A DNA stretch of 64,000 nucleotides from Candidatus Binataceae bacterium (lineage in GTDB: Bacteria > Desulfobacterota > Binatia > Binatales > Binataceae): positions 29,609-93,608 of the forward strand of contig JADMIL010000006.1 in the NCBI GenBank assembly GCA_015478645.1. Reading direction: 5' to 3'. A model generated the notes under the pieces. It made no database searches. It was not told where the DNA came from and was given only the letters and a program-made list of their open reading frames with translations. How positions within the stretch are numbered: position 1 is the first letter of the stretch; every line of letters begins with the position of its first letter. A program made the position numbers and the translations under genes. Positions 1 through 35,291 of this stretch are shown one piece after another.

Positions 1-690
1 AACTCGCCGTCGAATCCGACCGGCGCGGTCTATTCGCCCGGCAAGTTGAGCGAGCTGGCCAAGATTCTGCTCGAGGCCGGCCTCTGGATACTCTCCGATG
101 ACGTCTATGAGCACATCGTTTACGACGGTCCGGTGCCGCACATCTTCCGCATCGAACCGCGGCTGCAGGCGCGTGGTTTCGCGCTGAACTCGCTGTCGAA
201 AGCCTATGCGATGACCGGATGGCGAATCGGCTTTGCCGCCGGCCCCAAGGAAGTGATCGCCGCCGCCGCGCGCCTGCAAGGGCAAAACAGCGGCAATCCG
301 AACTCGATCACCCAGGCCGCCGCGATCGAAGCGCTGAGCGGACCGCAGGACGAAATCAAAACGATGATGGCGGAGTTCCGGCGGCGCCGCGAACTGGTGG
401 TCGAGCGCGTGCGCAAGCTGCCCGGCTTCAAGCTGCCCAACGTGCCGAGCGGCGCGTTCTACGTTTTTCCGAATATCACGGAGCTGATCGGCGCGAGTCT
501 CGGCGACCAGACCATCACGGACGGCAATTCGTTTGCGGAATTATTGCTGGCGGAAGAGCACGTCGCACTGGTCGGCGGCAACGATTTCGGCGCGCCACAT
601 CACGTGCGGATGTCGTACGCGACGTCGATGGAAAATCTCAACGCGGCTTTCGACCGGATCGGGAAGCTGGTCGCGCGCCTCAAGCGCTGA
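1..690 (+). CDS. PLP-dependent class I/II (aspartate-type) aminotransferase, 3' portion; 5' end outside window
   Basis: Frame is open from base 1 to the stop at 688-690. Carries the PLP-lysine motif NSLSKAYAMTGWRIGF plus SGAFYVFP and RMSYA motifs typical of AspC-like fold-type-I aminotransferases. Confidence 0.85.
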   Translation, partial: NSPSNPTGAVYSPGKLSELAKILLEAGLWILSDDVYEHIVYDGPVPHIFRIEPRLQARGFALNSLSKAYAMTGWRIGFAAGPKEVIAAAARLQGQNSGNPNSITQAAAIEALSGPQDEIKTMMAEFRRRRELVVERVRKLPGFKLPNVPSGAFYVFPNITELIGASLGDQTITDGNSFAELLLAEEHVALVGGNDFGAPHHVRMSYATSMENLNAAFDRIGKLVARLKR

Positions 691-779
691 CACGCCCCTG
701 CACGTTCGCGGCCTGCGCGTCGGTGACGGCCGGCCGCGGCAATGCCCGATCTTTTTTTCCGCCGCGGCCGGATCGATCG

Positions 780-1487
780 TCAGTGCTTGAGCAGCCACCA
801 TGAGCCGGTCAGCGGGCCGCGCAGGCCGATCGCCGTCGACGGCTTGATCGCGGCGACGAACTGCTGGCTGGACTCGACGTCCACACCGGCGTCCTTGAGC
901 GACTTGATCGCCGCGTCGCGCGAAGCGTCGCTGGTGCCGGCCAGTGCGTCGCTGATCACGGTGACCTTGTACTTGCGCGCCAAGGCGGCGCGCGCGGTCG
1001 TCAGCACCGAGCGGTCGGCATACGCACCCGCGATCACCAGTTCGCCGATATTCTGCTCGTCGAGCCACGGCTCGAGTTTGGAATTGCAAAACGCGTCCTT
1101 CGAGCTCTTGGCGAAAACCGGTCCGGCGTTGACGTCGGCGCGCTCGTCGAGTTGCGAACCGGCCCACAGGCGCGGCGTCGCGTAGTGGCGCGACCAGTTG
1201 CTGACGAAGGCAAACGGACTCGCCTCGTCCCGCGTGTAAAAGACCAGCATCGCGTTGGCCCGCGCCGCCGTAACGATCGCGTTGGTCGCGTCGATCATCG
1301 GCTGCACCTGATCCTGCGCCACCGGCAGGCGGCCGTTGGCCTCGAGATAGTCGCCCTGGTAGCCCAGCAGCATCACCGCCGTACCGAGGCCGCGGCCCCT
1401 AATCGGCTCCTGATCGCAGCCGCCGAGTAGCATCATCGCGGCGGCAATCGCCACGCCCAGCGTCAATCCGGTCTTCAGACGCGCCAT
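780..1487 (-). CDS. Isochorismatase-family (cysteine hydrolase) lipoprotein
   Basis: Start placed at ATG 1485-1487, giving MARLKTGLTLGVAIAAAMMLLGGC (signal peptide plus lipobox). The body shows the isochorismatase-like pattern VFYTRDE ... ELVIAGAYADRSVLTTA ... VISDA. The upstream part of the 289-aa track ORF is Arg-rich and was discounted. Confidence 0.7.
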   Translation of the reverse strand: MARLKTGLTLGVAIAAAMMLLGGCDQEPIRGRGLGTAVMLLGYQGDYLEANGRLPVAQDQVQPMIDATNAIVTAARANAMLVFYTRDEASPFAFVSNWSRHYATPRLWAGSQLDERADVNAGPVFAKSSKDAFCNSKLEPWLDEQNIGELVIAGAYADRSVLTTARAALARKYKVTVISDALAGTSDASRDAAIKSLKDAGVDVESSQQFVAAIKPSTAIGLRGPLTGSWWLLKH

Positions 1488-1578
1488 CGAATCCCATACC
1501 TCCGAAAAATTGATCCCATCTCTCTTACCATACCGCACGCCAAAAGCATGGCCCCCCCGCGCTCGCCCCGCATCCCGT

Positions 1579-2007
1579 CTACTTGCGCCACGGGGCTGGA
1601 AATTCGCCGGTGCGCAAAAAGCGCAGGTAGTCGGCGAGAATCTCGGCATGATCGAAGGCCAGCGGCGCGGGCGGATCGTCGGGATGATGGAGCGCGATCG
1701 CGCGCGCGTCGTCGCGCGCCTGCGGCGTGCCCCGCGCGCGGCCGACGTAGACCACCGTGATGGTCTGGCCGCGCGGATCGCGATCGGGCCGCGAGTAGAC
1801 CCCGAGCAGTGCGCGCAAATCGACTTCGAGCGAAGTCTCCTCGAGCGCCTCGCGCACGGCGGCCTGCTCGACGGTCTCGCCGAATTCGACGAAGCCGCCC
1901 GGAAACGCCCATCCGGGCGGAAAATTGAGCCGCTCGATGAAGGCGATGCGATCGCCGATTTCCGCGATCACGTCGGCCGCGATCGGCGGGCATACTGGAC
2001 GCGCCAT
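1579..2007 (-). CDS. NUDIX hydrolase
   Basis: NUDIX box GGFVEFGETVEQAAVREALEETSL. Start placed at the internal ATG (MARPVCPP...) rather than the track ORF start at 2073. Confidence 0.8.
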   Translation of the reverse strand: MARPVCPPIAADVIAEIGDRIAFIERLNFPPGWAFPGGFVEFGETVEQAAVREALEETSLEVDLRALLGVYSRPDRDPRGQTITVVYVGRARGTPQARDDARAIALHHPDDPPAPLAFDHAEILADYLRFLRTGEFPAPWRK

Positions 2008-2107
2008 GGGCGCCAGCCTAACACGCGCGCGGACGCGGCACAGCGGCATGCGCGATACGGCGCGAGTTGACATTGCGCGCGACGCGCCACAAAGTTCCTG
2101 CGTGGCT

Positions 2108-3124
2108 ATGCAAGTTGCGCGTCTCTATGATTTCGGCGATATCCGCGTTGAAGCGAGCGCCCGCCCCGAACCCGGACCCAACGAATTGCTGGTGCGCGTG
2201 CGCGCCTGCGGCATCTGCTCGGGCGATATCATGCCGTGGTACATCCGGCGCAAGGCGCCGCTGGTGCTCGGTCACGAGCCGGTCGGCGTGGTCGAGCAGG
2301 CCGGCGCCGCGGTGCGCGACTTCCGGCCGGGCCAGCGGGTCTTCGTCCATCATCATGCGCCGTGCTTCCAATGCGCCGCGTGCCGGCGCGGCGAGTACGT
2401 GCAATGCGCCACGTGGCGCGCGACCAATCTCAACCCCGGCGGCATGGCCGAATATTTTCTCGTCGCCGCGCCCAACCTGGCCGACACGCTCAAGCTGCCC
2501 GACGATCTCGGCGACCTCGACGGCGTGCTGATCGAACCGGCCGCCTGTGTGGTCAAATCGATCCGCCGATCGGGCCTGCGCCCGGGCGAATCGATCCTGA
2601 TTATCGGGCTCGGCATCATGGGCATGATGCATGTGAAGATCGCGCGCAGCCTCGGCGCGGGAACCATCATCGGCGCCGACCTCTTTGCACAGCGGGCGGC
2701 GCGCGCGCGCGAACTCGGGGCGGATTTCGGTCTCGTGGTTTCTGGCGATGATCTGGCCGAACAGGTACGCGGGGTGACCGGCGGCGCGATGGCCGACGTG
2801 GTGATCGTCGGGCCGGGCACCTCGCGCGTAATCGCGAGCGGTATCGCCGCCGCCGGCAAGGGCGCGACGGTCGTGCAATTCACCGCGACCCCGCCCGACG
2901 ATGAACTGCTGGTCAAGCCGCACGATCTCTATTTCAACGAGACCCGGCTGGTGCCGAGCTACTCATGCGGTCCCGACGACACGCGCGAAGCGCTCGACCT
3001 GGTACGCCGCGGCGTGATCAGCGCGCGCGAACTGGTCACGCATCAGTTTCCGCTGGCCCGGATCAACGAGGCGTTCGCGCAGGCGCAGAAACCCGAATCG
3101 CTCAAGGTCGTCGTCACCTTCTGA
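2108..3124 (+). CDS. Zn-dependent alcohol dehydrogenase / medium-chain dehydrogenase-reductase
   Basis: Start at ATG 2108 (MQVARLYDFGDIRVE...). Catalytic Zn motif VRACGICSGD...GHEPVG, structural Zn cysteines CFQCAACRRG, and Rossmann motif IIGLGIMG. Confidence 0.88.
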   Translation: MQVARLYDFGDIRVEASARPEPGPNELLVRVRACGICSGDIMPWYIRRKAPLVLGHEPVGVVEQAGAAVRDFRPGQRVFVHHHAPCFQCAACRRGEYVQCATWRATNLNPGGMAEYFLVAAPNLADTLKLPDDLGDLDGVLIEPAACVVKSIRRSGLRPGESILIIGLGIMGMMHVKIARSLGAGTIIGADLFAQRAARARELGADFGLVVSGDDLAEQVRGVTGGAMADVVIVGPGTSRVIASGIAAAGKGATVVQFTATPPDDELLVKPHDLYFNETRLVPSYSCGPDDTREALDLVRRGVISARELVTHQFPLARINEAFAQAQKPESLKVVVTF

Positions 3125-3152
3125 GTTCGCCCGATCGAAGTCCGTCACGCAT

Positions 3153-3267
3153 TAAGGAACCTCTGCACAAGTTAGGTTGTCATTCTGAGCGCAGCGAAGA
3201 ATCCCGGATCCGGGACCCATGCGCTGCGCTCAGGATGACAGCAGTGCCTTGTGCAGAGGTTCCCTAA
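3153..3267. repeat. Nested-palindrome MITE/REP-like element, copy 1 (orientation A)
   Basis: TAAGGAACCTCTGCACAAG ... GTCATTCTGAGCGCAGCG AAGAA TCCCGGATCCGGGA CCCATG CGCTGCGCTCAGGATGAC ... CTTGTGCAGAGGTTCCCTAA. Near-identical copies at 9197, 30657 and 39648. Lies 29 nt after the ADH stop. Confidence 0.9.
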
Positions 3268-3377
3268 ACCCGCACAACATCGGAACTGAATAATCGCTAG
3301 CCTTTGCAACAGAGAACGTCTCCAAGGAACGAGCTGAGTATAAAAGCAAATACTGAGGTAGAGATAAGGAGGGAGCG

Positions 3378-3414
3378 ATAAAATGAAGAGGGCGCCCATC
3401 GCGGACGCCCTCTT
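3378..3414 (-). terminator. Rho-independent terminator of the Met/His-rich lipoprotein gene
   Basis: 9-bp stem AAGAGGGCG (3386-3394) / CGCCCTCTT (3406-3414) with an 11-nt loop. On the minus strand it is followed by CATTTTAT, and it sits 27 nt downstream of the stop at 3441. Confidence 0.6.
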
Positions 3415-3440
3415 GCCGAATAGTCAGTTGCGACGAGCTA

Positions 3441-3866
3441 TCAGGAAGCCGCCGGAGCAGGAGCCTCCGGTGCCGGCGCTGCCGCCGCAGGAGCCTCAGC
3501 CCCAGGCGCCATCGCCGCCGCGTGATGATGCATGTGCATATGATGATGCATGTGCATATGGTGATGCATATGCATTTCGCCGCCTGAATCGGTCTTGGCC
3601 GCAATCGCTTCCGCACGATCGGCAGCCGCCTTGGCATCGGCTGCCGATTGCTCAACCTTGCTCGCCGAAGCCTGCGCCGAAGCCGCAGCCTGCTGTGCAG
3701 TCTGGCTTGCCGCTTCAGCGCGCTGCGCAGCCGAATCGGCCTGCGTAGCAGCCGCCTGCGCCGACTGGACGTCCTGGTTCGGACTGCAACCGGCCATCAA
3801 TGAAAGGGCGAACACAGCCCCCGCAAGTCCAATCAGTTTAGTCGATTTCGAGATTAACCCTTCCAT
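3441..3866 (-). CDS. Lpp-like Ala/Gln-rich lipoprotein with C-terminal (MHMHHH)x3 Met/His-rich tail
   Basis: ATG 3864-3866 is preceded by AAGGAGGA. Lipobox LSLMAGC. The coiled-coil-like segment AQAAATQADSAAQRAEAASQTAQQAAASAQ is followed by GGEMHMHHHMHMHHHMHMHHH and an Ala/Pro tail. Confidence 0.8.
   Translation of the reverse strand: MEGLISKSTKLIGLAGAVFALSLMAGCSPNQDVQSAQAAATQADSAAQRAEAASQTAQQAAASAQASASKVEQSAADAKAAADRAEAIAAKTDSGGEMHMHHHMHMHHHMHMHHHAAAMAPGAEAPAAAAPAPEAPAPAAS
3522..3575. repeat. In-frame 18-bp x3 tandem repeat encoding MHMHHH units
   Basis: gtgatgatgcatgtgcat / atgatgatgcatgtgcat / atggtgatgcatatgcat, read directly from the sequence. Confidence 0.9.
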
Positions 3867-4117
3867 CCTATCCTCCTTAAGATTTTGCCTGATATCTGGA
3901 CCGGGATCCTGAGATAACCGAACGGCGCAATTCGAATCACCGTGTAAACCCAAAATCCCGCTTACAAACAGATTTGCCTTCTGCAACTGCACTGGCCTTT
4001 CACCAACGTATTTGGCCAATAAACCATACCGTATGAGCGTAAGCACCGCAAACCGCCATCAATACGTTGGCACCACTTGCATTTGACCTAGTCCATTCGC
4101 CGCGCGCGAATTGATTA

Positions 4118-5833
<1,716 letters not shown>

Positions 5834-6042
5834 TGAGCGCTATCTCCAATCGGAAAAATATAATGTTGCGTACGTTAATCGGATCCGGCAGCCCGGGCCG
5901 CCGGACCTTGCGGGCCGCCCGCACTCCTCCCTCAGGGCGCGGTCGGCCATCAGGAACTTAAACATCGCGCGGCACAATGCAAGCGTCGGATACCCTTTTC
6001 GCGCCGCGATCGAGGTGTCAGGATAATCGCCGGAGGACCGCT

Positions 6043-6582
6043 GTGATCGCCAATCCTGTATCTCGTCCCGACGGCCGCCATCCGGCGGTTCGGAGGCTTT
6101 ATCGGACGCTGCACCGCATGGTTCGTATTACGGTCTGCACCGCGCTAATGGTCGCCGGCGCAATCGCCCCGGCGCCGCCCGCCGCGCGTGCCGCCAAACT
6201 GCAGTTGATCGTCCGGCCGATCCGCGAGGGAGCATTGCCCGGCTCACCCGCGATCGCCGCGGCAGCGCCATCAATCGCTATCTCGGAGACCGACCGCGCC
6301 GTTACGACGATTCGCGATCGGCGCTTCGCCCAGAACGACGACTCCGGCGCCGATACCGATATCGCGCCCGACCAGGTCCAGAAGTACATCGCGGTCTACA
6401 AGGACATGCAGCGCGATCGCGGCCTGACGGTCGAGCAGGCGGCGTCCAGGGAGGGGCTTACGCTCAGTGCGTTTCGCGCGCTCGAACGGAAGATCGAACG
6501 CGACGAACCAACCCGCGAGCATGTCCGCGCCGAACTGCAATCGGCGGCGGCCGCCGCTCCGACCCCGGTCACCGCCAAATAG
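6043..6582 (+). CDS. Exported hypothetical protein, DUF4168-like C-terminus
   Basis: GTG 6043 lies 6 nt after GGAGGA; an alternative ATG is at 6118. Hydrophobic signal VCTALMVAGAIAPAPPAARA. The C-terminal QVQKYIAVYKDMQRDRGLTVEQ...FRALERKIERDEPTREHVRAEL resembles DUF4168. Confidence 0.45.
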   Translation: MIANPVSRPDGRHPAVRRLYRTLHRMVRITVCTALMVAGAIAPAPPAARAAKLQLIVRPIREGALPGSPAIAAAAPSIAISETDRAVTTIRDRRFAQNDDSGADTDIAPDQVQKYIAVYKDMQRDRGLTVEQAASREGLTLSAFRALERKIERDEPTREHVRAELQSAAAAAPTPVTAK

Positions 6583-6666
6583 ACTCGCGCGGCGCCCGCT
6601 CCATACGCTGACGCGGCGGGCAGAGCCAGGGCCCACCCGCCGCGCCGCGCAAATTCGCTGCGGTAC

Positions 6667-6945
6667 TTATTTCGTGACCGAACTCGAGAACGCCGCTTCC
6701 AGACGCGCCACCGCGTCATCGGCGCGACGCGCCGAATCAGCCGCATTCTGAGCGCCGGTATCGGCCGCCTGCGCCGCCGTCTGCGCCTGCTGGGCGGCGG
6801 CTTCGGCAGAGGTCGCCGCGCTCCCCGCGCTGCTCGCGTCAGCTTCGGCCTTTTGCTTCGCGGCGGCAATATTGGCGCTATTGGAGCAGGCGGCCACGAA
6901 GGCCACCATCATTACAACCGTAATTAATTTCGCGAACTTCTTCAT
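6667..6945 (-). CDS. Braun-lipoprotein-like (Lpp/alanine-zipper) small lipoprotein ending in Lys
   Basis: ATG 6943-6945 with GGAGGTG upstream. Signal plus lipobox MKKFAKLITVVMMVAFVAAC. Ala/Gln-rich helix and C-terminal ...SSSVTK. Confidence 0.75.
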   Translation of the reverse strand: MKKFAKLITVVMMVAFVAACSNSANIAAAKQKAEADASSAGSAATSAEAAAQQAQTAAQAADTGAQNAADSARRADDAVARLEAAFSSSVTK

Positions 6946-7158
6946 CCTGAGCACACCTCCCATAATGGTTCTGATTCGGTCTCGCCGGCTGGAAATGCCA
7001 GACGCTGAATATCTCCGCTACGCAAGGAGCGGCGGCGAATCGCAGTAAACTGAGCAATAGTGACAAATCGATTTGCACTACGCAAGCTAGCGCGCGCACG
7101 CGGCACCGCTCTCATAGCGTATCGCGCGCATCGCGACCGATTCGCGGATGACTATCGG

Positions 7159-7188
7159 TTGACATCTAATTCCGGCCCCGATTATCGT
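7159..7188 (+). promoter_or_regulatory. Candidate sigma70 promoter of the Hsp20-like gene
   Basis: TTGACA (7159-7164), 18-nt spacer, TATCGT (7183-7188), about 70 nt upstream of ATG 7259. Confidence 0.3.
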
Positions 7189-7258
7189 TCTTTCAAGCTC
7201 ATCGATGGGCGCTCGCCAGATGCCTCGCACGACAAATTTATTCTCGGCTGCTTAGACC

Positions 7259-8005
7259 ATGACACCGGACGACCCGAGCGCACGACCCGCCGACGCGCCA
7301 GCCATCGCGGCGCCGGTTACGCCCGCCGCACCGCCGGTCATCGTGCCGCCCGCCGCGATGCCGACGATGCCAATCACGATGGCCATCGCACCCGAAGAGA
7401 CCGTCGCGAACTCGGCCGGCCTGGCGCGCAAACATTTTCCGGGCGAACTCGAGGGCGACTACGCGGAGATCATGCGGCGTGTCGAATTGATCCGGGCGCC
7501 CGGCTCAGCGCTGCGCCGCCTGGCGCGGGCGATTGTGCAAAGCCTGCCCTTGGCGCGACAGCGCCGGCGCGCCCCCGATTCCGACGATCGCCATGTCGCC
7601 TTCGACGGCTTTGCCCGCGCGGGCCACGAAGACAAGCTCGAGCGCGACCGCCGTTACGGCACCGTCTACCGCGTGACCGAGGCGCGCAACGCCTACCTGG
7701 TGCGGCTCGAGATGCCGCGGCGGACGCCCTACTCCGCACTCAAGCAGGCCTGGAAATTGCCCGATGAGATGCCGGCCTACGACTACACGATCAGTCTGGG
7801 CGACGATTTCCTCGCGATCCGCGCCGGCCTGCGGGGCGAGGCGATACGCCGCGCGGCCTACGTCTCGCCGTCGTTTCCGTCGCAGTTCTTAACCCGAATC
7901 GAATTCGCCCAGCCGGTCGCGGCGTTCAAACATCGGATGGAGGGCAAGCTGCTCGAGGTAATCGTCTTCAAGCGCGCGGCCGACGCGATTCCGAGCGCGG
8001 CCTGA
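7259..8005 (+). CDS. Hypothetical protein with Pro/Ala-rich N-terminus and Hsp20/alpha-crystallin-like C-terminal domain
   Basis: The C-terminal ~110 aa follow the ACD strand pattern: YRVTEARNAYLVRLEMP ... YTISLGDDFLAIRAGLRGE ... FLTRIEFAQPV..FKHRMEGKLLEVIVFKR. GC3-rich codon usage. Confidence 0.5.
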   Translation: MTPDDPSARPADAPAIAAPVTPAAPPVIVPPAAMPTMPITMAIAPEETVANSAGLARKHFPGELEGDYAEIMRRVELIRAPGSALRRLARAIVQSLPLARQRRRAPDSDDRHVAFDGFARAGHEDKLERDRRYGTVYRVTEARNAYLVRLEMPRRTPYSALKQAWKLPDEMPAYDYTISLGDDFLAIRAGLRGEAIRRAAYVSPSFPSQFLTRIEFAQPVAAFKHRMEGKLLEVIVFKRAADAIPSAA

Positions 8006-8030
8006 AATCGATGCGCTGGCAAGGCCGGAG

Positions 8031-8525
8031 ATGAGACGGAGCACGCCCTACGCTATGATTGCCGAGGCGATGGCCGAAGGCGTGAAAATCCGCGACGCGA
8101 CCAATCTCGATCTGCCGGCGATCATGGAGATCGAACGGTTGGCCTTTGCCCAGCCATGGAGTCTGGATTCGTTTGAGCGCGAGCTATCGTTGCCGTTTTC
8201 GCGGCTGATTGTTGCCAGTCCGATGGCTCGCGGCGCGTCCCCTCTGGCCGGCTACCTGTGCCGCTGGCTGGTGGCCGACGAATGCCACATCCTGAACGTC
8301 GCGGTGCGTCCCGGGATGCGGCGGCGAGGTATCGCGGAGCGGATGATGAGTGATGCCATAACCGAAGCAAAAGCAAAAAATGCTCAGGTAGTGACCCTTG
8401 AAGTGCGGCGATCGAATCTCGCGGCGCGGCGCTTGTATCGCAAATTCGCGTTTGAGGAACGACGTTTGAGAATCGGCTATTATGGCTCCGGAGAGGATGC
8501 GATTGTGATGGAACTCAAGCTCTGA
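8031..8525 (+). CDS. rimI: Ribosomal-protein-alanine N-acetyltransferase (GNAT)
   Basis: IMEIERLAFAQPWSLDSFERE ... ILNVAVRPGMRRRGIAERMM ... LEVRRSNLAARRLYRKFAF. Confidence 0.8.
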   Translation: MRRSTPYAMIAEAMAEGVKIRDATNLDLPAIMEIERLAFAQPWSLDSFERELSLPFSRLIVASPMARGASPLAGYLCRWLVADECHILNVAVRPGMRRRGIAERMMSDAITEAKAKNAQVVTLEVRRSNLAARRLYRKFAFEERRLRIGYYGSGEDAIVMELKL

Positions 8526-8704
8526 CCTGACTTTATTAGTACATGAGAACAAGGTTCTAAATTATTGACTTAAGCGAGGGGGTTACAATCTGGCTAAATT
8601 TGTGCAATAGTGGACGCAAGGTTCAGGCCGATCGGAAGCGGTAAGCTCACCGGCATTAGCCACCGCTCCGAAATCCGGTGCCTGCAACCAGGCATCTACC
8701 AACG

Positions 8705-9199
8705 ATGAGTTTGCCGTTCAAAAAGGGTGAAAAAGTCGTCTATCCCGCGCACGGAGTCGCCGTCATCGAGGATATTCAGAGCAAGGTGATCTCCGGAACC
8801 ACGCGGCGCTTTTACATGCTGCGCATCCTCGGTACGGAAAAGATGACGATCATGATTCCGACCGAAAATGTCGAAGCGGTTGGGCTGCGCCGGGTAATCG
8901 GGATGGACACGGTCAGCAAAATCTACAAAATCCTGCGGCAACGCAAAGTCGAGGCCGATTCGCAGACCTGGAATCGCCGGTACCGCGAATATACGGAAAA
9001 GATCAAGACCGGGTCGCCGCTGGAAATCGCCAAGGTATTGCGCGATCTGCTGGTGCTCAAAGGCGACAAGGAACTTTCCTTCGGCGAGCGCAAGATGCTC
9101 GATACGGCGCGCAGCCTGCTGGTCAAGGAATTGTCGATCGCCAAGGCTCATCCGGAAGAGAAGATCATGGAAGAGCTGAAGACCATGTTCGCCACCTAA
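8705..9199 (+). CDS. carD: CarD/CdnL-family RNA-polymerase-binding transcription regulator
   Basis: MSLPFKKGEKVVYPAHGVAVIEDI...RRFYMLRI (Tudor-like RID) followed by a helical C-terminal domain. Sits upstream of ispD, which is a conserved synteny. Confidence 0.88.
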   Translation: MSLPFKKGEKVVYPAHGVAVIEDIQSKVISGTTRRFYMLRILGTEKMTIMIPTENVEAVGLRRVIGMDTVSKIYKILRQRKVEADSQTWNRRYREYTEKIKTGSPLEIAKVLRDLLVLKGDKELSFGERKMLDTARSLLVKELSIAKAHPEEKIMEELKTMFAT

Positions 9200-9312
9200 G
9201 GAACCTCTGCACAAGGCTCTGCTGTCACCCTGAGCGCCAGCGAATGGGTCCCGGATTCGGGATTCTTCGCTGCGCTCAGAATGACAACCTCACTTGTGCA
9301 GAGGTTCCCTAA
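9197..9312. repeat. Nested-palindrome MITE/REP-like element, copy 2 (orientation B)
   Basis: TAAGGAACCTCTGCACAAG...GTCACCCTGAGCGCCAGCGAATGGGTCCCGGATTCGGGATTCTTCGCTGCGCTCAGAATGAC...CTTGTGCAGAGGTTCCCTAA. Its first three bases are the carD stop codon. Confidence 0.9.
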
Positions 9313-9359
9313 GGCGCGTCCCGCCAGGCGCCGCGCGACGTGGGATTTTGCGCCAAAAT

Positions 9360-9391
9360 GGGGCCGGCTTCACTGCCTGGCCCCTTTTCTT
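9360..9391 (+). terminator. Rho-independent terminator downstream of carD
   Basis: GGGGCCGG cttcactg CCTGGCCCC hairpin followed by TTTTCTT. Confidence 0.55.
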
Positions 9392-9471
9392 GCCCCTGAA
9401 CGTGAATACCGCTTAAGTCACGCTATCTCCTTAATTCGCGCGACTCTCGTCAATCGCGCAACCATCCAAAG

Positions 9472-10197
9472 ATGAACGCCTCAGCAATTAACGCTTCAGC
9501 AATTAACGCTTCAGTAATAATTGTGGCGGCCGGCAGCGGCACGCGCCTGGGCTTCGACGCACCGAAGGCTTTCGTCGAGCTCGCCGGACGATCGCTGCTC
9601 GGCTGGACGCTCAGGACGATCGCCGCGGTGCCCGCGATTGACGAGGCGGTGATCGCCGTGCCCGAGGGGATGGAGGCGCGGGCGCGCATCGAGGTAATCG
9701 CCGCCGGCCTCGAGATTCCAGTCAAGCTGACGCCGGGCGGCGCCGAGCGGCAGGATTCGGTGCGCCACGCGCTGGCGCTGACCAGCGCCGCGGCCGCGAT
9801 CGTGGTGGTGCATGACGCGGCGCGGCCATTCGCCACGCCCGCGATGTTTGCCGCGACGATCGCGGCGGCGGCGCGCGCGGGCGGCGCGATCGCCGCGATT
9901 GCACTGGCCGATACGCTCAAGCGCGCGGCGGCCGACGGGCGGACGATCGCGGCGACGATCGCGCGCGCCGGACTATGGCAGGCGCAGACCCCGCAGGCCT
10001 TTCGGCGCGAGTTGCTGAATGCGGCTCATGCGCGCGCGGTGCGTGAAGCGATCGCCGCGACCGACGACGCCGATCTGGTCGAGCGCTGCGGCGGCGTGGT
10101 CGAGCTGATCGAAGCCTCGGCGCTGAATTTCAAGATTACGACCGCCGCCGATTTCAGGCTGGCCGCGGCGCTGGCGAGGTCCCAAGCCCCTCATTGA
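9472..10197 (+). CDS. ispD: 2-C-methyl-D-erythritol 4-phosphate cytidylyltransferase
   Basis: VIIVAAGSGTRLGFDAPKAFVEL...VHDAARPF...QTPQAFR. The N-terminus carries a 15-bp tandem repeat (NASAINASAINAS). Confidence 0.88.
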   Translation: MNASAINASAINASVIIVAAGSGTRLGFDAPKAFVELAGRSLLGWTLRTIAAVPAIDEAVIAVPEGMEARARIEVIAAGLEIPVKLTPGGAERQDSVRHALALTSAAAAIVVVHDAARPFATPAMFAATIAAAARAGGAIAAIALADTLKRAAADGRTIAATIARAGLWQAQTPQAFRRELLNAAHARAVREAIAATDDADLVERCGGVVELIEASALNFKITTAADFRLAAALARSQAPH

Positions 10198-10996
10198 GCG
10201 AGCCCGAGCGGAAACCCTTCAGATCGACTGTCACATAGCGGAAGCCAAACTTTTTCAACTCGCGATCGACCGTCTCGCGCGTCGCCGGTTCGAGCAGGCG
10301 CGCTACCTCGCTCGCTTCGACCTCGAGGCGCGCGACCTCACCGTGATAGCGCACGCGCGCCACGCGAAAGCCCAGCGCATGAAGCAGCCGCTCGCCCCGC
10401 TCGACCATTTGCAGGCCCGCCGGCGTGATCTGCATGCCGTAGGGGAAGCGCGACGACAGGCAGGGCGACGCCGCGCGATCCCAGGTCGGCAGGCCGAGCG
10501 CCCGCGACAGCTCGCGCACGTCAGCCTTGGTCAGCTCGGCCTCGACCAGCGGATGGCGCACGCTTTGCTCGGTCGCGGCCTGGATACCGGGACGATAATC
10601 GTTGAGGTCGTCAAGGTTGAGACCGTCGGCGATCTCGTCGATACCGAGTTCGCGCGCCTTGGCCACGCATACGGTGAATAGGTTGTGCTTGCAGAGGTAG
10701 CATCGGTTGAGCGGATTTTGGGCGTAGCCCGGAATCTCGAGCTCGTTCGATTCGATCACCAGATGGCGCGCGCCGATCAGCCGGCCCATCTCGAGCGCCG
10801 AGAGCCGATCGTCGTCGGGCATGGTCGGCGAAGTGGTGGTCAGGGCGAGCACGCGAGCGCCGAGCGCGTCGCAGGCCGCCTTGAGCACAAAGGTCGAATC
10901 GACGCCGCCGGAAAACGCGACCATCAGGGAGCGCATCGGGCGGAAGATCTCGCTCAGACGCGCGAGCTTTTGTTCGAGCGGATTTTTCATGATCAA
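10154..10996 (-). CDS. PP-loop ATP-pyrophosphatase, LarE / TIGR00268-like sulfur-transferase family
   Basis: PP-loop VAFSGGVDSTF plus the NRCYLCKHNLF cysteine motif. Its 3' end overlaps the convergent ispD 3' end by 44 bp. Confidence 0.65.
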   Translation of the reverse strand: MIMKNPLEQKLARLSEIFRPMRSLMVAFSGGVDSTFVLKAACDALGARVLALTTTSPTMPDDDRLSALEMGRLIGARHLVIESNELEIPGYAQNPLNRCYLCKHNLFTVCVAKARELGIDEIADGLNLDDLNDYRPGIQAATEQSVRHPLVEAELTKADVRELSRALGLPTWDRAASPCLSSRFPYGMQITPAGLQMVERGERLLHALGFRVARVRYHGEVARLEVEASEVARLLEPATRETVDRELKKFGFRYVTVDLKGFRSGSLNEGLGTSPAPRPA

Positions 10997-11027
10997 GGCT
11001 GGCGGAATTGATCGCGCATGCGGCGCG

Positions 11028-11963
11028 TCAAATGCCCTCGGCCTGGAACAGATCGGTCGTCAGATAGCGCTCGCCGGTATCGCAGAACACCACGACGACG
11101 ATTTTGCCGCGGCCCAGCCGCTTAGCAATCTGCAGCGCGGCACAACAATTGGCGCCCGACGAGATGCCGACCAGCAGGCCCTCTTCGCGCGCGAGGCGGC
11201 GCGAGTAGCGGGTCGCGTCCTCGTCGCTGACGGCGATCACTTCATCGTAAATTTTGGTGTCGAGATTTTCCGGGACGAAGCCGGCGCCGATGCCCTGGAT
11301 TTTATGGAAGCCGGCTTCGCCGCCTTCGAGCACGGGCGAGCTTTTGGGCTCGACCGCGACGATCAGCGGACGATTCTTCAGATGTTCGCGCAGGTAGCGG
11401 CCGACGCCGCTGATCGTGCCGCCGGTGCCGACGCCCGAGATGAACGCGTCGATCTGGTCGAGCTGTTCCATCAGCTCGGGACCGGTATGCGCGTAATGTG
11501 CCTCGGGGTTGGCCGAATTGCTGAATTGCTGCGGCATGTAGTAGCCCGGATTGGCGCGCACCAACTCCTCGGCCTTGGCGATCGCACCGTGCATCCCGCG
11601 CGTATCCGGGGTCAGCACGAGCTTGGCGCCGTAGGCGGCGAGCAGCGAGCGGCGCTCCTCGCTCATGGTGTCGGGCATGGTCAGGATGAGGCTGTAGCCT
11701 TTGACCGCGCAGACCAGGGCGAGGCCGATGCCGGTGTTGCCGGAGGTCGGCTCGACGATCGTGTCACCGGGCTTGAGGCGCCCTTCGCGTTCGGCCTTTT
11801 CGACCATCGCCAGACAGATGCGATCCTTGACGCTGCCGCCCGGATTGTAGTTTTCGAGCTTGGCCCAGACCTCGGCGTCGTCCTTGCCCGGCAGACGATT
11901 GAGCCGGACCACCGGAGTATGGCCCACGAGTTCCAACGGTGTATGCGCAACGCTGATCGGCAT
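11028..11963 (-). CDS. cysK: Cysteine synthase A (O-acetylserine sulfhydrylase)
   Basis: Start at ATG 11961-11963 ([21 protein letters not shown]). PLP-lysine motif [14 protein letters not shown], then [10 protein letters not shown] and [10 protein letters not shown]. Confidence 0.92.
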
Positions 11964-12072
11964 GGCGGCAATTCTAACCCGATTACAGCCACCGTTGCGA
12001 CAGATGCGAATGCGGATAAAGTTGCTCGAACCTCCCCGCGCCACGAGCGGACGATGAATCGATGATAGAACG

Positions 12073-13065
12073 GTGATGGTGGATCAGGCGGACTTAAGCG
12101 GCGGGCGCATGCTGATAATCTTTCCGGGCGCGCTCGGCGATCTGATCTGCGCGGCGCCGGCGATGCGCGCGCTGGCCCGGCGTCATGCTGATGCGACGGT
12201 CGATTTCATGGCGCGGGCGGAACTCGCGCGCTTCGCGGCGGAGCATCGCGTCGCGGCGCGCGGCCATTCTCGCGCCTATTCGATCGACCGGCGCGAGGTC
12301 GCCCAATTGTTCGATGCCGCAAGGCCGATCGCGGCCGAGGCGCGCGCATTCTTTGGGGCATTCGCCCAGGTCTATTCGTTTTTCGCCGCCGCCGATGCGG
12401 GTTTTCGCGACGCGCTCGCGGCGGCCACCGCGGGCCGCGCGACCTGCTACCCGTTTCGGCCACCGGGCCTCGATCACGTCGCCATTGGCTACCTGCGCGC
12501 GATCGGCGCCGACTCCGCCGCTGCGCCGGTGTGGACCGTCGAGTTGCGCGACGATCAACTCGCCAGGGCCGCCGCACGACTTGCCGCGGCCGGTCTGGAG
12601 CCGCACAATTTTCTCTTGATCCTGCCGGGCAGTGGCAGCCCGGCGAAGAACTGGCCGGCGGAGAGCTTCGCCGCCGTAACCGATTCGCTGGTCCCGCGGA
12701 TGCGCCCGCTGGTCATCCTCGGACCCGCCGAGGAGGCAATCGCTCCGATTTTTGCCGCGCGCGGACTGGCAATCATGCGCGAACTGGAATTGGGCGAAGT
12801 CGCCGCAATCGCGCGGCTGGCATCCGGCTTTATCGGCAACGATTCCGGCGTGACCCATCTGGCGGCGGCGGCCGGTGCGCCGGGAATCGCGATCTTCGGG
12901 CCGACCGATCCGGAGCGCTGGCGTCCGATCGGCCGGGTGATCGTGATGCGGCACGTGCCGCTCGCTATGCTGGAAGTCGGCGCGGTCGCCGTGCGCCTGG
13001 CGGCGGTGATCGCCGAAAGCTTGCCGGATGGCCCCGCGCAGGTGCGGCAGAGCGGCGAAAAATGA
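12073..13065 (+). CDS. Glycosyltransferase family 9 (heptosyltransferase-like)
   Basis: [21 protein letters not shown] ... [17 protein letters not shown] ... [31 protein letters not shown]. The start may instead be at 12109. Confidence 0.8.
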
Positions 13066-13214
13066 TTAGAATGGGAGATGAATAGGGCGCAGACTGGGAT
13101 CGTTGATCGATATACTGACGAAAGGTAGGTAAAGACGGCGGCCGTCGGACCTAAAGCCAAAACCAATTCCGGTTTTCAGGCAATCGCCCAGACGCGCCCG
13201 CCGCATATAGATTT

Positions 13215-14072
13215 ATGTCGACTATGCTCAAAACAACCTTCCTGATGGGCCTGATGACCGGCTTGATCATCCTGATTGGCGGGATGTTGCACGGGCGCGG
13301 CGGGATGGAGATCGCGTTCGTCTTCGCCGTCGGAATGAACTTCTTCAGCTACTGGTTCTCGGACAAGATGGTCTTGCGCGCCTACAAGGCGCAACCGCTC
13401 GACGCCTCGAGCGCGCCCGATCTGTATGCGATCGTCAACGAGCTAGCGACTTCGGCGGGCATCCCGATGCCGAAGCTCTACCTGATCGACAACGACACGC
13501 CTAACGCCTTTGCCACCGGCCGCAACCCCAAACATGCGGCGGTCGCGGTCACGCGCGGGATCATGCGGATTTGCACGCGCGAGGAGTTGAAAGGCGTTAT
13601 CGGGCACGAGTTGTCGCACGTCATCAATCGCGACATCCTGACCAGCTCGATCGCGGCGACGATGGCCGGCGTGATCATGATGATCGGGACGATGGTGCGC
13701 TGGGGCGCGCTGCTGGGCGGCTTTGGCGGGCGCGACGACGAAAATCGCGGCGGCGCGCTCGGGCTGCTCTTCATGGCGATCCTGGCGCCGGTCGCGGCGA
13801 CGCTGATTCAGCTCGCGATCTCGCGCACGCGCGAGTACCAGGCCGACGCGAGCGGCGCGCATCTGACGCATAATCCGCTGCTGCTGGCCAACGCGCTGCG
13901 CAAACTCGAATCGGCCAACGAGCGGATGCCGCTGTCGGACGCGACGCCCGCCACGGCGCATATGTTTATCGTCAATCCGCTCAGTGCGGGCGGTCTGTCG
14001 CGGCTGTTCTCAACCCATCCGCCGATCGAAGAGCGGATCCGGCGGCTCGAGCAGATGGCGCATAACGGATAA
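13215..14072 (+). CDS. htpX: Membrane zinc metalloprotease HtpX (M48)
   Basis: [14 protein letters not shown] motif [31 protein letters not shown]. Confidence 0.93.
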
Positions 14073-14094
14073 TCGCCTCACGGATAACCGATAG

Positions 14095-14697
14095 ATGGCA
14101 AACGAAGAAGAAAAATCGCCGGGTTTCAAGGTCAACGATCGCCGCCGCTTTTCCGCCGAGGGCGACCTCAAGCCGGAGTTTCGCGGGGATGACGAGGCGC
14201 CCGCCGCGGCCAAGCCGGGCGATACGGTCGCCGACGCCAACGCGCCCAGCGATGCGGACGCGGTCGATGCGGCTCTGCACAGCGCCGCCGAGCACGCCGG
14301 TCATGCGGATGCCGGGCACGCGCACCATGATGCCGCGCACGGTCATCCACATGTTCACGCTGATCACGATGATCATGCAGATCACGCGGCGCATCCGCAC
14401 GAACCTTTGGGGCATGCGCATCACCCGGGCGAGCCGGCAGCCCCGGAGCTGAGCTTCGGCACCTTCCTGGTCGGACTCTCGACCCAGGCGCTGGTGCTGC
14501 TCGGGGATATCGTCGATCCGCAGACCGGCGAAGCGATGCAGGATTTGCGCGGGGCGGAGCAGCTAATCGACATTATCGGGATGCTTCGCGAAAAGACTCG
14601 TGGCAATCTCGATCGCGACGAGGCTCAACTGATCGAGGCGGTGCTCTACGAACTGCGCATGAAGTACGTTGAGCGCGCCCGGCAGGCGCCGCGCTAG
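14095..14697 (+). CDS. DUF1844-domain protein with a ~50-aa His-rich insertion
   Basis: The C-terminal FGTFLVGLSTQALVLLG...DLRGAEQLIDIIGMLREKTRGNLDRDEAQLIEAVLYELRMKY matches my recollection of DUF1844. The mid-region reads HSAAEHAGHADAGHAHHDAAHGHPHVHADHDDHADHAAHPHEPLGHAHH. Confidence 0.7.
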   Translation: MANEEEKSPGFKVNDRRRFSAEGDLKPEFRGDDEAPAAAKPGDTVADANAPSDADAVDAALHSAAEHAGHADAGHAHHDAAHGHPHVHADHDDHADHAAHPHEPLGHAHHPGEPAAPELSFGTFLVGLSTQALVLLGDIVDPQTGEAMQDLRGAEQLIDIIGMLREKTRGNLDRDEAQLIEAVLYELRMKYVERARQAPR

Positions 14698-14806
14698 AGC
14701 AATCGCCGAGGGCGCGGCGCGCGCGGATACGGCGGGCGCTCGATGGCCGTCGCGACGCAGGGTAGCAGACGCCCCAACACGGGTAGTCCGCCGGAACTTC
14801 ATCAGG

Positions 14807-16384
14807 ATGCTGCGCGAGCCGGGATTTGAATGGCGAGTGGCCGGGGTCGCGGCGAGTCTCGCGCTGATGCTGGCCTCGAGCGGTGCGGCGCCGGCGAATT
14901 GCGCCGGGGCGTCCACGGCAAATCCCGCCGGAAATTCCGTCGCCCGCGCCACCGAATCGCGCGCGCCGACGGTCCCGGGCGCGATCATCACCGCGAATCA
15001 ATTATGGAGTGCGCGGCCGGCCGGGCGCATCGGCAAGGCCGCGACGCTACCCGATTTCGTTGCGCTGGCGGCGCAACTGTCGCCGGCGGTGGTCAATATC
15101 TCGACCGAGCAGAAGGTCGATGCGGGGGGCGCCACGACCGACCCCGACGGCGGCTCCGACAGTAATCCGGACCGCAACAGCGACCCATTCGATCGCTTCG
15201 GCCAGCCGTTCGAGCGCTACGACCTGCCCCATCCGCACAGTCTCGGCTCAGGCTTTATCATCAATTCGGCGGGCTATATCCTGACCAACGATCACGTGGT
15301 CGAAGACGGCGGTCCGACGGTGGTGACGCTGCGCGACGGCCATGAATATACCGCGCGCGTGATCGGGCAGGACTCGCGATCGGATATCGCGCTAATCAAG
15401 ATCGACGCGCCGCATCGTCTGCCGGTCGCGCCGCTGGGCGATTCCGACACGGTGCGGGTGGGGCAATGGGTAATCGCGATCGGCAATCCGTTTGGCTTCG
15501 ACCATTCGGTGACGGCCGGAATCGTGAGCGCGAAGGGCCGCTTTATTCCGGGCAATTTCGACGACTATATCCAGACCGACGCGTCGATCAATCCGGGCAA
15601 TTCGGGCGGCCCGCTGATCGATCTGCGGGGCGCGGTGGTCGGCGTCAATTCGGCGATCTATACGCGCACCGGCGCCAGCATGGGGATCGGTTTTGCGATT
15701 CCGGTCAACCTGGTCAAGCAGGAATTGCCGCAGATGCTGAGCCGCGGCAAGGTGGTGCGCGGATGGCTCGGGGTCTATATCGAGCCGGTCTCGGAGGCCG
15801 AGGCGCAGGCGGCGGGACTCGATCCGCCGCACGGCGCGATGGTCAACGAGGTGCTCGACGACAGTCCGGCGGCGCGGGCCGGGCTGCGGCATGGCGACAT
15901 CGTCGTGGGCTTTGACGGTCATGAAATCGGCACCGCGCAGGAGCTGCCGCTGATGGTCGGCACGGTGCCGGTCGGCCACGACGCGACGCTGACCGTAATC
16001 CGGGGCCGGACGGCGCGGCGGATCGCGCTCGTGATCATGCCGTCGCACGAGGAGCAACTGGCCCGGGCCGATGCCGCGGCGTCGGCGGCCGGCGATCCCG
16101 AAGCGTTCGGCCTGACGGTCAAGGACCTCAGTCCGGCCCTGGCACACGAACTCAAGCTCGATGACGCCAGCGGCGTGGTGATCGACGGGGTCGATGCCGG
16201 CAGCCGGGCCGCGGCGGCGGGCCTGCGCGCGCGCGACGTGATCCTGTCAGTCGATCGGCGCGCGGTCGGCACGGTGAGTGCGTTCGACCTGGCGCTGGGA
16301 ACCGCCGCGCCGGATCGGGTGGTGCTGTTGCTCATCCGGCGCGACAAGGGCACGCTGTTTATCCCCTTGCGCCGCCGGGATTGA
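14807..16384 (+). CDS. Periplasmic serine endoprotease DegP/HtrA with two PDZ domains
   Basis: Start at ATG 14807. Catalytic triad contexts TNDHVV, DIALIKI and GNSGGPL, followed by two PDZ-like segments. Confidence 0.9.
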   Translation: MLREPGFEWRVAGVAASLALMLASSGAAPANCAGASTANPAGNSVARATESRAPTVPGAIITANQLWSARPAGRIGKAATLPDFVALAAQLSPAVVNISTEQKVDAGGATTDPDGGSDSNPDRNSDPFDRFGQPFERYDLPHPHSLGSGFIINSAGYILTNDHVVEDGGPTVVTLRDGHEYTARVIGQDSRSDIALIKIDAPHRLPVAPLGDSDTVRVGQWVIAIGNPFGFDHSVTAGIVSAKGRFIPGNFDDYIQTDASINPGNSGGPLIDLRGAVVGVNSAIYTRTGASMGIGFAIPVNLVKQELPQMLSRGKVVRGWLGVYIEPVSEAEAQAAGLDPPHGAMVNEVLDDSPAARAGLRHGDIVVGFDGHEIGTAQELPLMVGTVPVGHDATLTVIRGRTARRIALVIMPSHEEQLARADAAASAAGDPEAFGLTVKDLSPALAHELKLDDASGVVIDGVDAGSRAAAAGLRARDVILSVDRRAVGTVSAFDLALGTAAPDRVVLLLIRRDKGTLFIPLRRRD

Positions 16385-22239: not shown

Positions 22240-23065
22240 GCTGCCGGAAGTCGAATCGCTGCGGCGGATTCTGGCCGCCTCCGCGACCGGCCGCAGCTTC
22301 ATTGCCGCGATCGTCCGCGAGCCGCGCCTGCGCCGCGCGGTCACGCCCGATTTTGCCGCGTCGATTATTGGCCGCACGATCGAGACGGTCGGCCGCCGCG
22401 CGAAATACCTGATGATCGAACTGGGCGGCGGCGATCTGCTGATGGTCCATCTCGGGATGAGCGGCAGCCTGACCCATCGGCGCGCCGGCCGCGACAACGA
22501 GCCGTTCGATCCGCGCCACGACCATCTCGAGTTCACACTCGACGACGGCAGCCGGCTGGTCTACAACGACCCGCGCCGCTTCGGCCTGATCAAACTGGTG
22601 GCGCGCGCCGACCTCGCGGCGATCGCGGAGCTGCGCGGACTCGGCCCCGAGCCGTTCGCCGCCGAATTCTGCACAGACTATTTGTGGCGCGTCACGCGCG
22701 GGCGCAGGGGCGCGATCAAGAACCTGCTGATGGACCAGCGGATCGTCGCCGGCGTGGGTAATATCTATGCCTCCGAGATTCTGTTCCGCGCCCGCGTGCG
22801 GCCGACACGCCGGGCCGGCAAGGTCACCCGCGCCGAGCTCGCGCGGATCGCCGCGATTACGCCCGCCGTGCTGCACGAAGCGATCGGCAGCGGCGGCACC
22901 ACCTTTCGCAGCTATCGCGACGGGCGCGGCCAGCCCGGCCGCTATGCGCCGCGCCTGCTGGTCTACGATCGCGAGGGCCAGCCATGCCGCGAATGCGCCA
23001 CGCCGATTCGTGCGGTGACGGTCGGCCAGCGCTCGAGCTTCTATTGCCCGCACTGCCAGAAATAG
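22232..23065 (+). CDS. mutM: Formamidopyrimidine-DNA glycosylase
   Basis: N-terminal MPELPEVE and C-terminal zinc finger CRECATPI...FYCPHCQ. Overlaps the rsmA end by 8 bp. Confidence 0.93.
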   Translation: MPELPEVESLRRILAASATGRSFIAAIVREPRLRRAVTPDFAASIIGRTIETVGRRAKYLMIELGGGDLLMVHLGMSGSLTHRRAGRDNEPFDPRHDHLEFTLDDGSRLVYNDPRRFGLIKLVARADLAAIAELRGLGPEPFAAEFCTDYLWRVTRGRRGAIKNLLMDQRIVAGVGNIYASEILFRARVRPTRRAGKVTRAELARIAAITPAVLHEAIGSGGTTFRSYRDGRGQPGRYAPRLLVYDREGQPCRECATPIRAVTVGQRSSFYCPHCQK

Positions 23066-23068
23066 CGC

Positions 23069-23148
23069 CGGGCATGGGGTGCGGGCGAGTCTGCGCAGCC
23101 GCGGTTTACGGGCATGGGGTGCGGGCGAGTCTGCGCAGCCGCGGTTTA
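23069..23148. repeat. Perfect 40-bp x2 tandem repeat (repeat family 2)
   Basis: CGGGCATGGGGTGCGGGCGAGTCTGCGCAGCCGCGGTTTA occurs at 23069-23108 and again at 23109-23148. Related inverted copies lie at 35146-35184 and 35265-35291. Confidence 0.92.
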
Positions 23149-23284
23149 AAAGAGAGCGCGAGACATCATGGAACTATCCCCGCCGCGCACGTAAGCTTGA
23201 CCGCGTGATCGCAAACCGCGCCGAAATTTCCCCCGCTGCGCGCGCCGCCCGCGCAGATCGGCACTCCCGCCAAGGGCCGACGGC

Positions 23285-30659: not shown

Positions 30660-30771
30660 GTAACCTCTGCATAAGTCAGGTTGTCATTCTGAGCGCAGCG
30701 AAGAATCCCGGATCCGGGACCCATGCGCTGCGCTCAGGGTGACCCCAGAGCCTTGTGCAGAGGTTCCCTAG
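30657..30771. repeat. Nested-palindrome MITE/REP-like element, copy 3 (orientation A)
   Basis: TAGGTAACCTCTGCATAAG...GTCATTCTGAGCGCAGCGAAGAATCCCGGATCCGGGACCCATGCGCTGCGCTCAGGGTGAC...CTTGTGCAGAGGTTCCCTAG. Its first three bases are the ogt stop codon. Confidence 0.9.
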
Positions 30772-35141: not shown

Positions 35142-35145
35142 TTTT

Positions 35146-35291
35146 TAGCCGCGGCTTCGCAGACTCGCCCGCACCCCATGCCCGCCGCGCCCGATTCACC
35201 CGCTTAATTTTTGCGGGAGGTGTGGAACCTCTCAGAGGTTCCACTTGCTGCTACTCTCTTTTTATAGCCGCGGCTTCGCAGACTTGCCCGG
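35146..35291. repeat. Composite repeat patch: family-2 copy, collapsed family-1 terminal palindrome, and partial family-2 copy
   Basis: 35146-35184 TAGCCGCGGCTTCGCAGACTCGCCCGCACCCCATGCCCG is the reverse complement of the 23069 unit. 35222-35244 is GTGGAACCTCTCAGAGGTTCCAC. 35265-35291 is TAGCCGCGGCTTCGCAGACTTGCCCGG. Confidence 0.85.

Follow-up and report, generated by a model that had tools for sequence, protein, structure and literature searches.

Our analysis of a 64,000-nucleotide stretch of Binataceae DNA (the window) indicates that each of four dispersed palindromic copies within it is very probably a non-autonomous MITE of the IS5 family, IS5 group. The copies are short, non-coding and dispersed, they are bounded by inverted repeat ends (TIRs) and a target-site duplication, and they are polymorphic for insertion, all of which are marks of a MITE; their ends are those of IS5-family DDE insertion sequences and the duplication is the 4-bp YTAR of the IS5 group. 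Literature searches returned no named family with this consensus, and the element is a new, unnamed family member of the IS5-type MITEs, a kind already known. What is less ordinary about it is a TIR that is invariant across phyla, the way in which the duplication regenerates stop codons, and its hairpin cargo. The element accounts for the dispersed palindromes in this genome, and it explains both the breaks in short-read assemblies of this lineage at these points and the spurious ORF calls across the copies.

According to the mechanism we propose, an IS5-group DDE transposase (DUF772 plus DDE_Tnp_1) would move the element in trans by binding its terminal repeats, inserting it at YTAR and duplicating those four bases. 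Insertions at gene 3′ ends would be tolerated and would accumulate, since the duplication keeps the stop codon on the gene side. A cognate transposase would be, or would once have been, encoded in this genome; searches of the window and of the related and metagenome contigs L110-L209 (some 1.1 Mb, with close relatives confined to L110-L129) recovered none of the IS5 type.

The four copies and their anatomy

With their duplications included, the four full copies occupy positions 3152-3267, 9196-9312, 30656-30771 and 39648-39763 of the window, which agrees with the boundaries of the original prediction to within one base. A profile HMM built from them detected no fifth copy, whole or fragmentary, elsewhere in the window at E<1e-3. 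With the same profile, each copy reaches about 132-136 bits in its true orientation and about 62-73 bits in the opposite one, so that copies 1 and 3 (plus strand) are indeed inverted relative to copies 2 and 4 (minus strand), as had been claimed. Between the duplications, the element proper measures 108-109 bp, which is too short for a transposase gene, and the ORFs that cross the four copies are spurious only; the predicted lack of coding capacity therefore stands. The elements proper are 93-95% identical in pairwise comparisons, in keeping with the near-identity first judged by eye. When the copies are aligned together with short flanks, mean column identity is 89% and the likeness stops abruptly at YTA...TAR.

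Copy 1 (3156-3263, plus strand, 108 bp) is flanked by TTAA on the left (3152-3155) and CTAA on the right (3264-3267), copy 2 (9200-9308, minus strand, 109 bp) by CTAA on both sides (9196-9199 and 9309-9312), copy 3 (30660-30767, plus strand, 108 bp) by CTAG on both sides (30656-30659 and 30768-30771), and copy 4 (39652-39759, minus strand, 108 bp) by TTAG on the left (39648-39651) and CTAG on the right (39760-39763). The 4-bp duplication is thus perfect in copies 2 and 3 and differs by one base in copies 1 and 4. Just inside it, both ends of every copy carry the 16-bp TIR GGAACCTCTGCACAAG with zero to two mismatches per end; in copy 1 the left TIR lies at 3156-3171 on the plus strand and its partner, CTTGTGCAGAGGTTCC, at 3248-3263. 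Allowing up to three mismatches, we counted the 20-mer end sequence eight times in the window, two occurrences to a copy, where shuffled sequences led us to expect none.

Between the TIRs and 7-nt linkers, the interior consists of a 25-nt hairpin, GTCAYYCYGAGCGNAGCGARGRATC, present twice in inverted arrangement. In copy 1, module A (GTCATTCTGAGCGCAGCGAAGAATC, 3179-3203, plus strand) has the stem ATTCT/AGAAT, a tandem G-A and a GC-GNA-GC tip, and module B (3214-3239, minus strand, reading GTCATCCTGAGCGCAGCGCATGGGTC on that strand) is a diverged, inverted copy of it. Owing to this doubling of an inverted module, the element as a whole is very nearly palindromic, and its description changes accordingly. 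The original prediction saw three concentric inverted repeats; the anatomy is instead a duplication, a 16-bp TIR and two hairpin modules, although the innermost palindrome is real and is formed where the modules join (3202-3215 in copy 1). That 14-bp centre, TCCCGGATCCGGGA, had been called perfect, which holds for three copies but not for copy 2, where it has one mismatch. Similarly, the middle arms belong to the two hairpin modules, and so do the asymmetric AAGAA and CCCATG bases that flank the centre; these bases do mark orientation as was proposed, but in each module they form the 3′ half of its stem.

Four further copies are present in the sister MAG DAHVFB ('Deltaproteobacteria bacterium clean291'; loci L006, L067, L073 and L087). 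Together with those of the window, the eight copies lie zero to six substitutions from one consensus and do not cluster by genome, a star-like divergence pattern, as in a transposon family. The family may no longer be active in this genome, because the window copies have diverged from each other by 5-7%. For the same strain (SRR12886061), Logan contigs end some 25 nt into copies 2 and 4, the behaviour expected of a multi-copy repeat. As a separate observation on the window, which has a G+C content of 65%, its positions 1-15833 are 100% identical to part of DAHVFM010000018.1 (GCA_027317005.1, an uncultured MAG).

Insertion sequences with the same ends and empty sites

Scanning one representative genome per species with the end sequence TARGGAACCTCTGCACAAG returned more than 100 loci, in hosts that include Acidobacteriaceae/Terracidiphilus, Ca. 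Binatia, Gemmatimonadota, Thermoanaerobaculia, Burkholderiales, Pseudomonadales, Dehalococcoidia, Longimicrobiales, Luteimonas, Woeseia and others; many of the matches lie about 100 bp from contig ends. When bounded elements were defined in the window and at loci L002-L107 by pairing forward and reverse GGAACCTCTGCACAAG with at most three mismatches, we obtained 59, which fall into two size classes of 90-302 bp and 1166-1207 bp. Next to the TIRs, on the outer side, the adjoining four bases are mostly the same at both ends and read CTAG, CTAA, TTAG or TTAA. Because these bases match as YTAR across the elements, the terminal repeat first described as a 20-bp TIR resolves into a 4-bp target-site duplication and a TIR of only 16 bp; the inverted repeat ends are real, but their outer four bases belong to the target. 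The same GGAACCTCTGCACAAG and YTAR duplication also bound many unrelated MITEs of 90-302 bp in several phyla. Mobility had been tied to occurrence beyond the loci of the window, and the sister-MAG copies together with this wider family of elements in other genomes satisfy that expectation.

The larger size class contains full insertion sequences. We scanned two of its members for transposase ORFs, L088:915-2087 from Acidobacteriaceae and L022:300-1465 from Pseudomonadales, and each has one ORF of about 320 aa. Both proteins match NCBIfam NF033581 'IS5 family transposase' (326 and 335 bits against a cut-off of 140) as well as Pfam DUF772 and DDE_Tnp_1, and the two transposases are 46% identical to each other. 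Both elements have an exact 16-bp TIR at one end and one to two mismatches at the other. Tblastn with the two proteins found homologous coding sequence in most of the other elements of 1.17-1.21 kb. In a related lineage, Ca. Binatus (L049), this TIR precedes the N-terminal 96 aa of a transposase that is 78% identical to that of L022, and the TIR copies of Ca. Binatus are located at contig ends, as is usual for multi-copy insertion sequences. The suggestion that a transposase would be found flanked by the same TIR is thus borne out by full IS5-family insertion sequences in other genomes and by a partial one in Ca. Binatus. One 16-bp end remains unchanged across several phyla while the transposases diverge to 46% identity, and this same end serves many unrelated MITE interiors.

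The likeness between the window element and the full insertion sequences ends at the 16-bp TIR, and the interior does not derive from the transposase gene. For the transposases that carry this TIR, 56% is the highest identity reached in the PLSDB plasmid collection, and the TIR 19-mer is absent from IMG/VR. The L088 gene has 67% nucleotide identity to E. coli IS5-family genes; the E. coli match was rejected as the classical IS5 for comparing TIRs, being a different IS5-family member. Locus L082, considered as a full Binatus-type insertion sequence, was also rejected and proved to be a scaffold gap.

Members of the IS5 group are characteristically about 1.2 kb long, have 16-bp TIRs that run GGAA...AAG, and duplicate a YTAR target of 4 bp. 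The window element resembles the prototype, IS5 of E. coli, in having a 16-bp TIR that begins with GGAA and ends with AAG and in its YTAR duplication; it differs from insertion sequences of the group, which carry a transposase gene, in being 108-109 bp long without one and in having an unrelated interior. MITEs with TIRs that match resident IS5-family insertion sequences have been described before, as MITE239, MITE464 and BrickBuilt in P. gingivalis and as the Neisseria ATR, which comes from ISNme1 (PMC4596501), and a recent review frames the general properties of prokaryotic MITEs (PMC10969869). Like the window element, those of P. gingivalis and Neisseria are short and non-coding with IS5-family-matching TIRs. 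They differ from it in TIR sequence, host phylum and interior, the TIR of the window element being common to many phyla and its interior a double hairpin.

In order to find filled and empty alleles of the same site, we chose relatives at site 2 by CarD, as the identical protein is encoded on ten other public contigs. Site 2 is empty in L113 and L119, which read ...GCCACCTAAGGCG... with a single CTAA, and also in L118, with CTAG. The window at this site reads CTAA, then 109 bp of element, then CTAA-GGCG, and with L113 and L119 it forms a clean filled/empty pair with a 4-bp duplication. Three other contigs (L110, L112 and L115, from JGI samples 3300031670-72 and ENA assemblies) carry a clearly different MITE subfamily here, at the same CTAA and in the same orientation, which could reflect either repeated use of one target or the later conversion of an old insertion.

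Site 1 is empty in L123 and L126, where a reconstruction of the left flank, CTAA and the right flank aligns gap-free across the junction. The reverse situation was found as well: L123 and L124 have a 111-bp MITE (CTAA/CTAA) on the stop of a DUF1844 gene, where the window has CTAG only. At sites 3 and 4, exact-protein look-ups returned same-strain contigs only, and a metagenome scan with the 994-aa histidine kinase encoded between copies 3 and 4 returned only paralogues at no more than 50% identity. The presence of empty alleles at sites 1 and 2 in relatives, and of a MITE in one relative that the window lacks, answers the earlier question of filled versus empty sites; this presence/absence polymorphism, together with the IS5-type ends, upholds the proposal of a mobile, MITE-like unit rather than a conserved terminator.

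Gene ends, stop codons and folding

All copies had been described as intergenic at gene 3′ ends. Copies 2-4 do adjoin stop codons, whereas copy 1 lies between the convergent genes for ADH (2108-3124, plus strand) and a 141-aa ORF (3441-3866, minus strand) and touches neither stop. In copy 2 the TAA at 9197-9199, within the left duplication, is the stop of carD (8705-9199, plus strand); in copy 3 the TAG at 30657-30659, also in the left duplication, is that of an Ada/MGMT-like gene (29850-30659, plus strand); and in copy 4 the minus-strand TAG at 39762-39760, in the right duplication, ends a Usp gene (39760-40647, minus strand, start uncertain). The stop codon is therefore supplied by the duplication in three of the four window copies, and the genes are Pfam-supported. 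Since TAA or TAG forms part of YTAR, the targets available in a genome of 65% G+C include stop codons, and as the tetranucleotide is duplicated, the gene keeps an intact stop after insertion. A YTAR-targeting transposon can in this way occupy stop codons harmlessly, regenerating the stop from its own duplication, and the insertion puts a hairpin of about 110 nt at the start of the 3′ UTR. Considering all loci, an ORF of at least 100 codons ends in the duplication of 20 of 44 MITEs, compared to 22.5% of 1982 unoccupied YTAR sites. This enrichment is only about two-fold, and it could be due to targeting or to the survival of harmless insertions under purifying selection.

Each copy folds on either strand into one long hairpin at -72 to -83 kcal/mol (z -10 to -14), so that computed folding of all four copies agrees with the long hairpin that had been predicted for a transcript. 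A very stable hairpin on both strands, in four of four copies at gene 3′ ends, is also what could be expected if the copies were a conserved cis-acting RNA or DNA structure (a terminator, a 3′-end stabiliser or a protein-binding hairpin) kept at gene ends and immobile. We regard this explanation as very improbable. Two of the four sites have empty alleles in relatives with an identical CarD. The orientation of the copies relative to the upstream gene is mixed, and reading the flanks directly we found no T run after the hairpin at any copy, in contrast to the T/U tract of an intrinsic terminator; a terminator scan of both strands called none of the four.

Two further results weigh against a conserved structure. 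Downstream of copy 2 there is a GC hairpin with a T run after it (GGGGCCGGCTTC.CTGCCTGGCCCCTTTTT). Relatives conserve it whether or not they carry the MITE, and we read it as the putative terminator of carD itself, though the same terminator scan did not flag it. Further, RNAalifold on the eight copies gives a covariation term of +0.84, with substitutions that break pairs or alter one side only; the only pair changed on both sides lies within the duplicated target bases. At gathering score, no Rfam family matches the window; under a permissive E-value, the MITE and the free-standing double hairpin match only miRNA-precursor models, far below threshold. As an origin of the copies, a conserved structure is thus largely refuted. 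If GGGGCCGGCTTC.CTGCCTGGCCCCTTTTT is the carD terminator, then the element at this site is probably co-transcribed into the 3′ UTR. Under the reading that we prefer, an IS5-group MITE, the element would be co-transcribed into 3′ UTRs and might have some effect at the RNA level, and any such role would be a by-product.

The inner hairpin and comparison with known repeats

The inner hairpin is the part of the element that could be of wider interest. We found no explanation for its breadth and strict covariation. In its general form the module has a 5-bp stem (ATYCY/RGRAT) followed by a tandem G-A and the GC-GNA-GC tip, and it is self-foldable; d(GCGNAGC) is a very stable DNA mini-hairpin. Across 138 distinct instances, the two variable stem pairs show Watson-Crick pairing in 137 cases, G-U in one and a mismatch in none, where arithmetic from the base counts gives about 31 C-A mismatches expected at one of the pairs if its sides were independent. 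Roughly a quarter of these instances have an inverted partner 2-83 nt away. Covarying variants stand free, without IS5 ends, in Acidobacteriaceae and at other loci, and variants also occur inside IS5-TIR MITEs of Binataceae, with more diverged forms in MITEs of Thermoanaerobaculia, Luteimonas and Burkholderiales. An exact 25-27-mer is found on two Calothrix plasmids, and the degenerate 25-mer matches at least 120 environmental viral contigs in IMG/VR. Genomes of cultured phages essentially lack the hairpin. Literature searches with the hairpin DNA strings and with peptide strings of its translation returned no description of it.

These properties raise the question of whether the whole element might be of the REP/REPIN type, spread by a RAYT (HUH, Y1) transposase reading ssDNA hairpins, with the outer repeats incidental. 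The inner 61 bp of the window element are, as in REPINs, a doublet of inverted short hairpins, in this case two imperfect 25-nt hairpins with a short spacer, and such an origin is favoured both by the near-perfect stem covariation and by the hairpins of Acidobacteriaceae, Calothrix and IMG/VR contigs, which stand free of IS5 ends. The polymorphic unit, however, is the whole TIR-bounded element with its 4-bp duplication, which is the signature of a DDE transposase and not of RAYT, and IS5-family insertion sequences have identical TIRs. In addition, the GTAG-type 5′ tetranucleotide that heads REP/BIME and REPIN elements is lacking, and the hairpin crosses phyla and appears in viral contigs, unlike REP/RAYT systems, which are lineage-specific. 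We therefore give little credence to a REPIN-type origin of the copies as mobile units and retain the IS5-group MITE.

A separate matter is what the interior is. REPIN-like elements, HUH-recognised ssDNA hairpins and RNA elements are all possible candidates for the hairpin. We tentatively suggest, as an idea more doubtful than probable, that the interior might be a captured, uncatalogued hairpin, structurally constrained and cross-phylum in distribution, that has a function or mobility of its own (as HUH-recognised ssDNA or as RNA), in which case the Binatia-like MITEs would be its chimeric vehicles.

The original prediction had compared the element to REP/BIME, ERIC and Correia elements, and this affinity did not hold up: the TIR, the 4-bp YTAR duplication and the transposase family all place it among IS5-group MITEs instead. 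The analogy is understandable, as Correia elements of Neisseria and ERIC/IRU of Enterobacteria are also intergenic palindromes of about 100-150 bp that form long hairpins, and they are co-transcribed. Correia elements have a TA duplication and 26-bp TIRs and are Neisseria-specific, and we know of no transposase for ERIC. Compared by these general features, the window element differs from Correia in its 4-bp duplication and 16-bp TIR, and probably also in TIR sequence, and it has no likeness to anything catalogued in Rfam.

The least credible origin, which we consider next to impossible, is a MITE of the Tc1/IS630 type, such as Correia or RUP, in which the duplication covers no more than the central TA of NTAN: all ends do read YTA...TAR and are compatible with a TA duplication, yet the bases around the TA vary by site while matching on both sides of each copy (CTAA/CTAA, CTAG/CTAG, TTAG/TTAG and TTAA/TTAA among the 59 elements), the flanking 4-mers equal the single tetranucleotide at empty sites, so that four bases and not two are duplicated, and the scanned autonomous elements encode IS5-family rather than IS630-family transposases, the empty-site sequences and the transposase family together ruling out a TA duplication.

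Two MITE subfamilies at the carD stop codon

In the relatives L110, L112 and L115, whose CarD protein is identical, a different MITE subfamily occupies site 2, the insertion point of copy 2 (positions ~3493-3608, equivalent to L123:10493-10608). This diverged MITE shares with window copy 2 both its orientation and its precise insertion point, the CTAA of the carD stop codon. The presence of two MITE subfamilies at one CTAA suggests either that this is a recurrent target or that conversion has occurred between subfamilies. At site 1, the insertion point of copy 1, the empty relatives L123 and L126 carry an unrelated, GC-rich insertion of ~140 bp (L123:4420-4560 and L126:869-1010), which lies 14 nt downstream of the CTAA and is missing from the window.

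Shared ends and a shared inner hairpin

Many unrelated MITE interiors are bounded by the identical 16-bp IS5-type TIR and a YTAR duplication, at loci that include L045, L047, L061, L099, L019, L057, L059, L075, L100 and L107, among others. These interiors include GC-rich hairpins and GGTCGGAATCGG-type microsatellite-like cores, and their hosts are Thermoanaerobaculia, Binatia, Gemmatimonadota and Dehalococcoidia. At two loci, L031 and L045, both duplications terminate long convergent ORFs.

The unit copied in both inner arms of the window MITE is a 25-nt hairpin, GTCAYYCYGAGCGNAGCGARGRATC, found at 3179-3203 and 3214-3239 and at equivalent positions in the other copies. Stem covariation is near-perfect, with 137 Watson-Crick pairs, one G-U pair and no mismatches in 138 instances. 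Outside the MITE the hairpin is free-standing in other phyla; Calothrix plasmids and at least 120 IMG/VR contigs carry it (loci L043:2535-2605, L108:303-390 and L210-L329), and it is essentially absent from cultured phages. The hairpin had no match in Rfam, and we found no description of it in the literature.

Other repeats in the window

A second dispersed repeat family, GGGCATGGGGTGCGGGCGAGTCTGCGCAGCCGCGGTTTA, forms two tandem units at ~23.1 kb (23065-23151) and is inverted and partly repeated at ~35.2 kb (35142-35188 and 35261-35290), its 22-nt core giving five matches compared to 0.02 expected. Similar CGCAGACTCGCC strings are contained within Binataceae MITEs (L071, L101). Between two direct copies of this family lies GGAACCTCTCAGAGGTTCC, a 19-bp perfect palindrome (35224-35242; chance expectation 0) built from two head-to-head copies of the IS5-type TIR's outer 9 nt. 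YTAR flanks are missing, and the palindrome may be a collapsed MITE or other TIR relic.

Elsewhere, a 51-nt direct repeat (53322-53372 and 53975-54025; 98% identical, 653 bp apart) lies on either side of a short segment that separates two large ORFs. The minus-strand GroEL gene (4118-5833; Cpn60_TCP1, 248 bits) contains a 9-bp tandem repeat at 4145-4210, which encodes an unusually long C-terminal GGM-type repeat; the length of the protein differs among relatives (562-575 aa).
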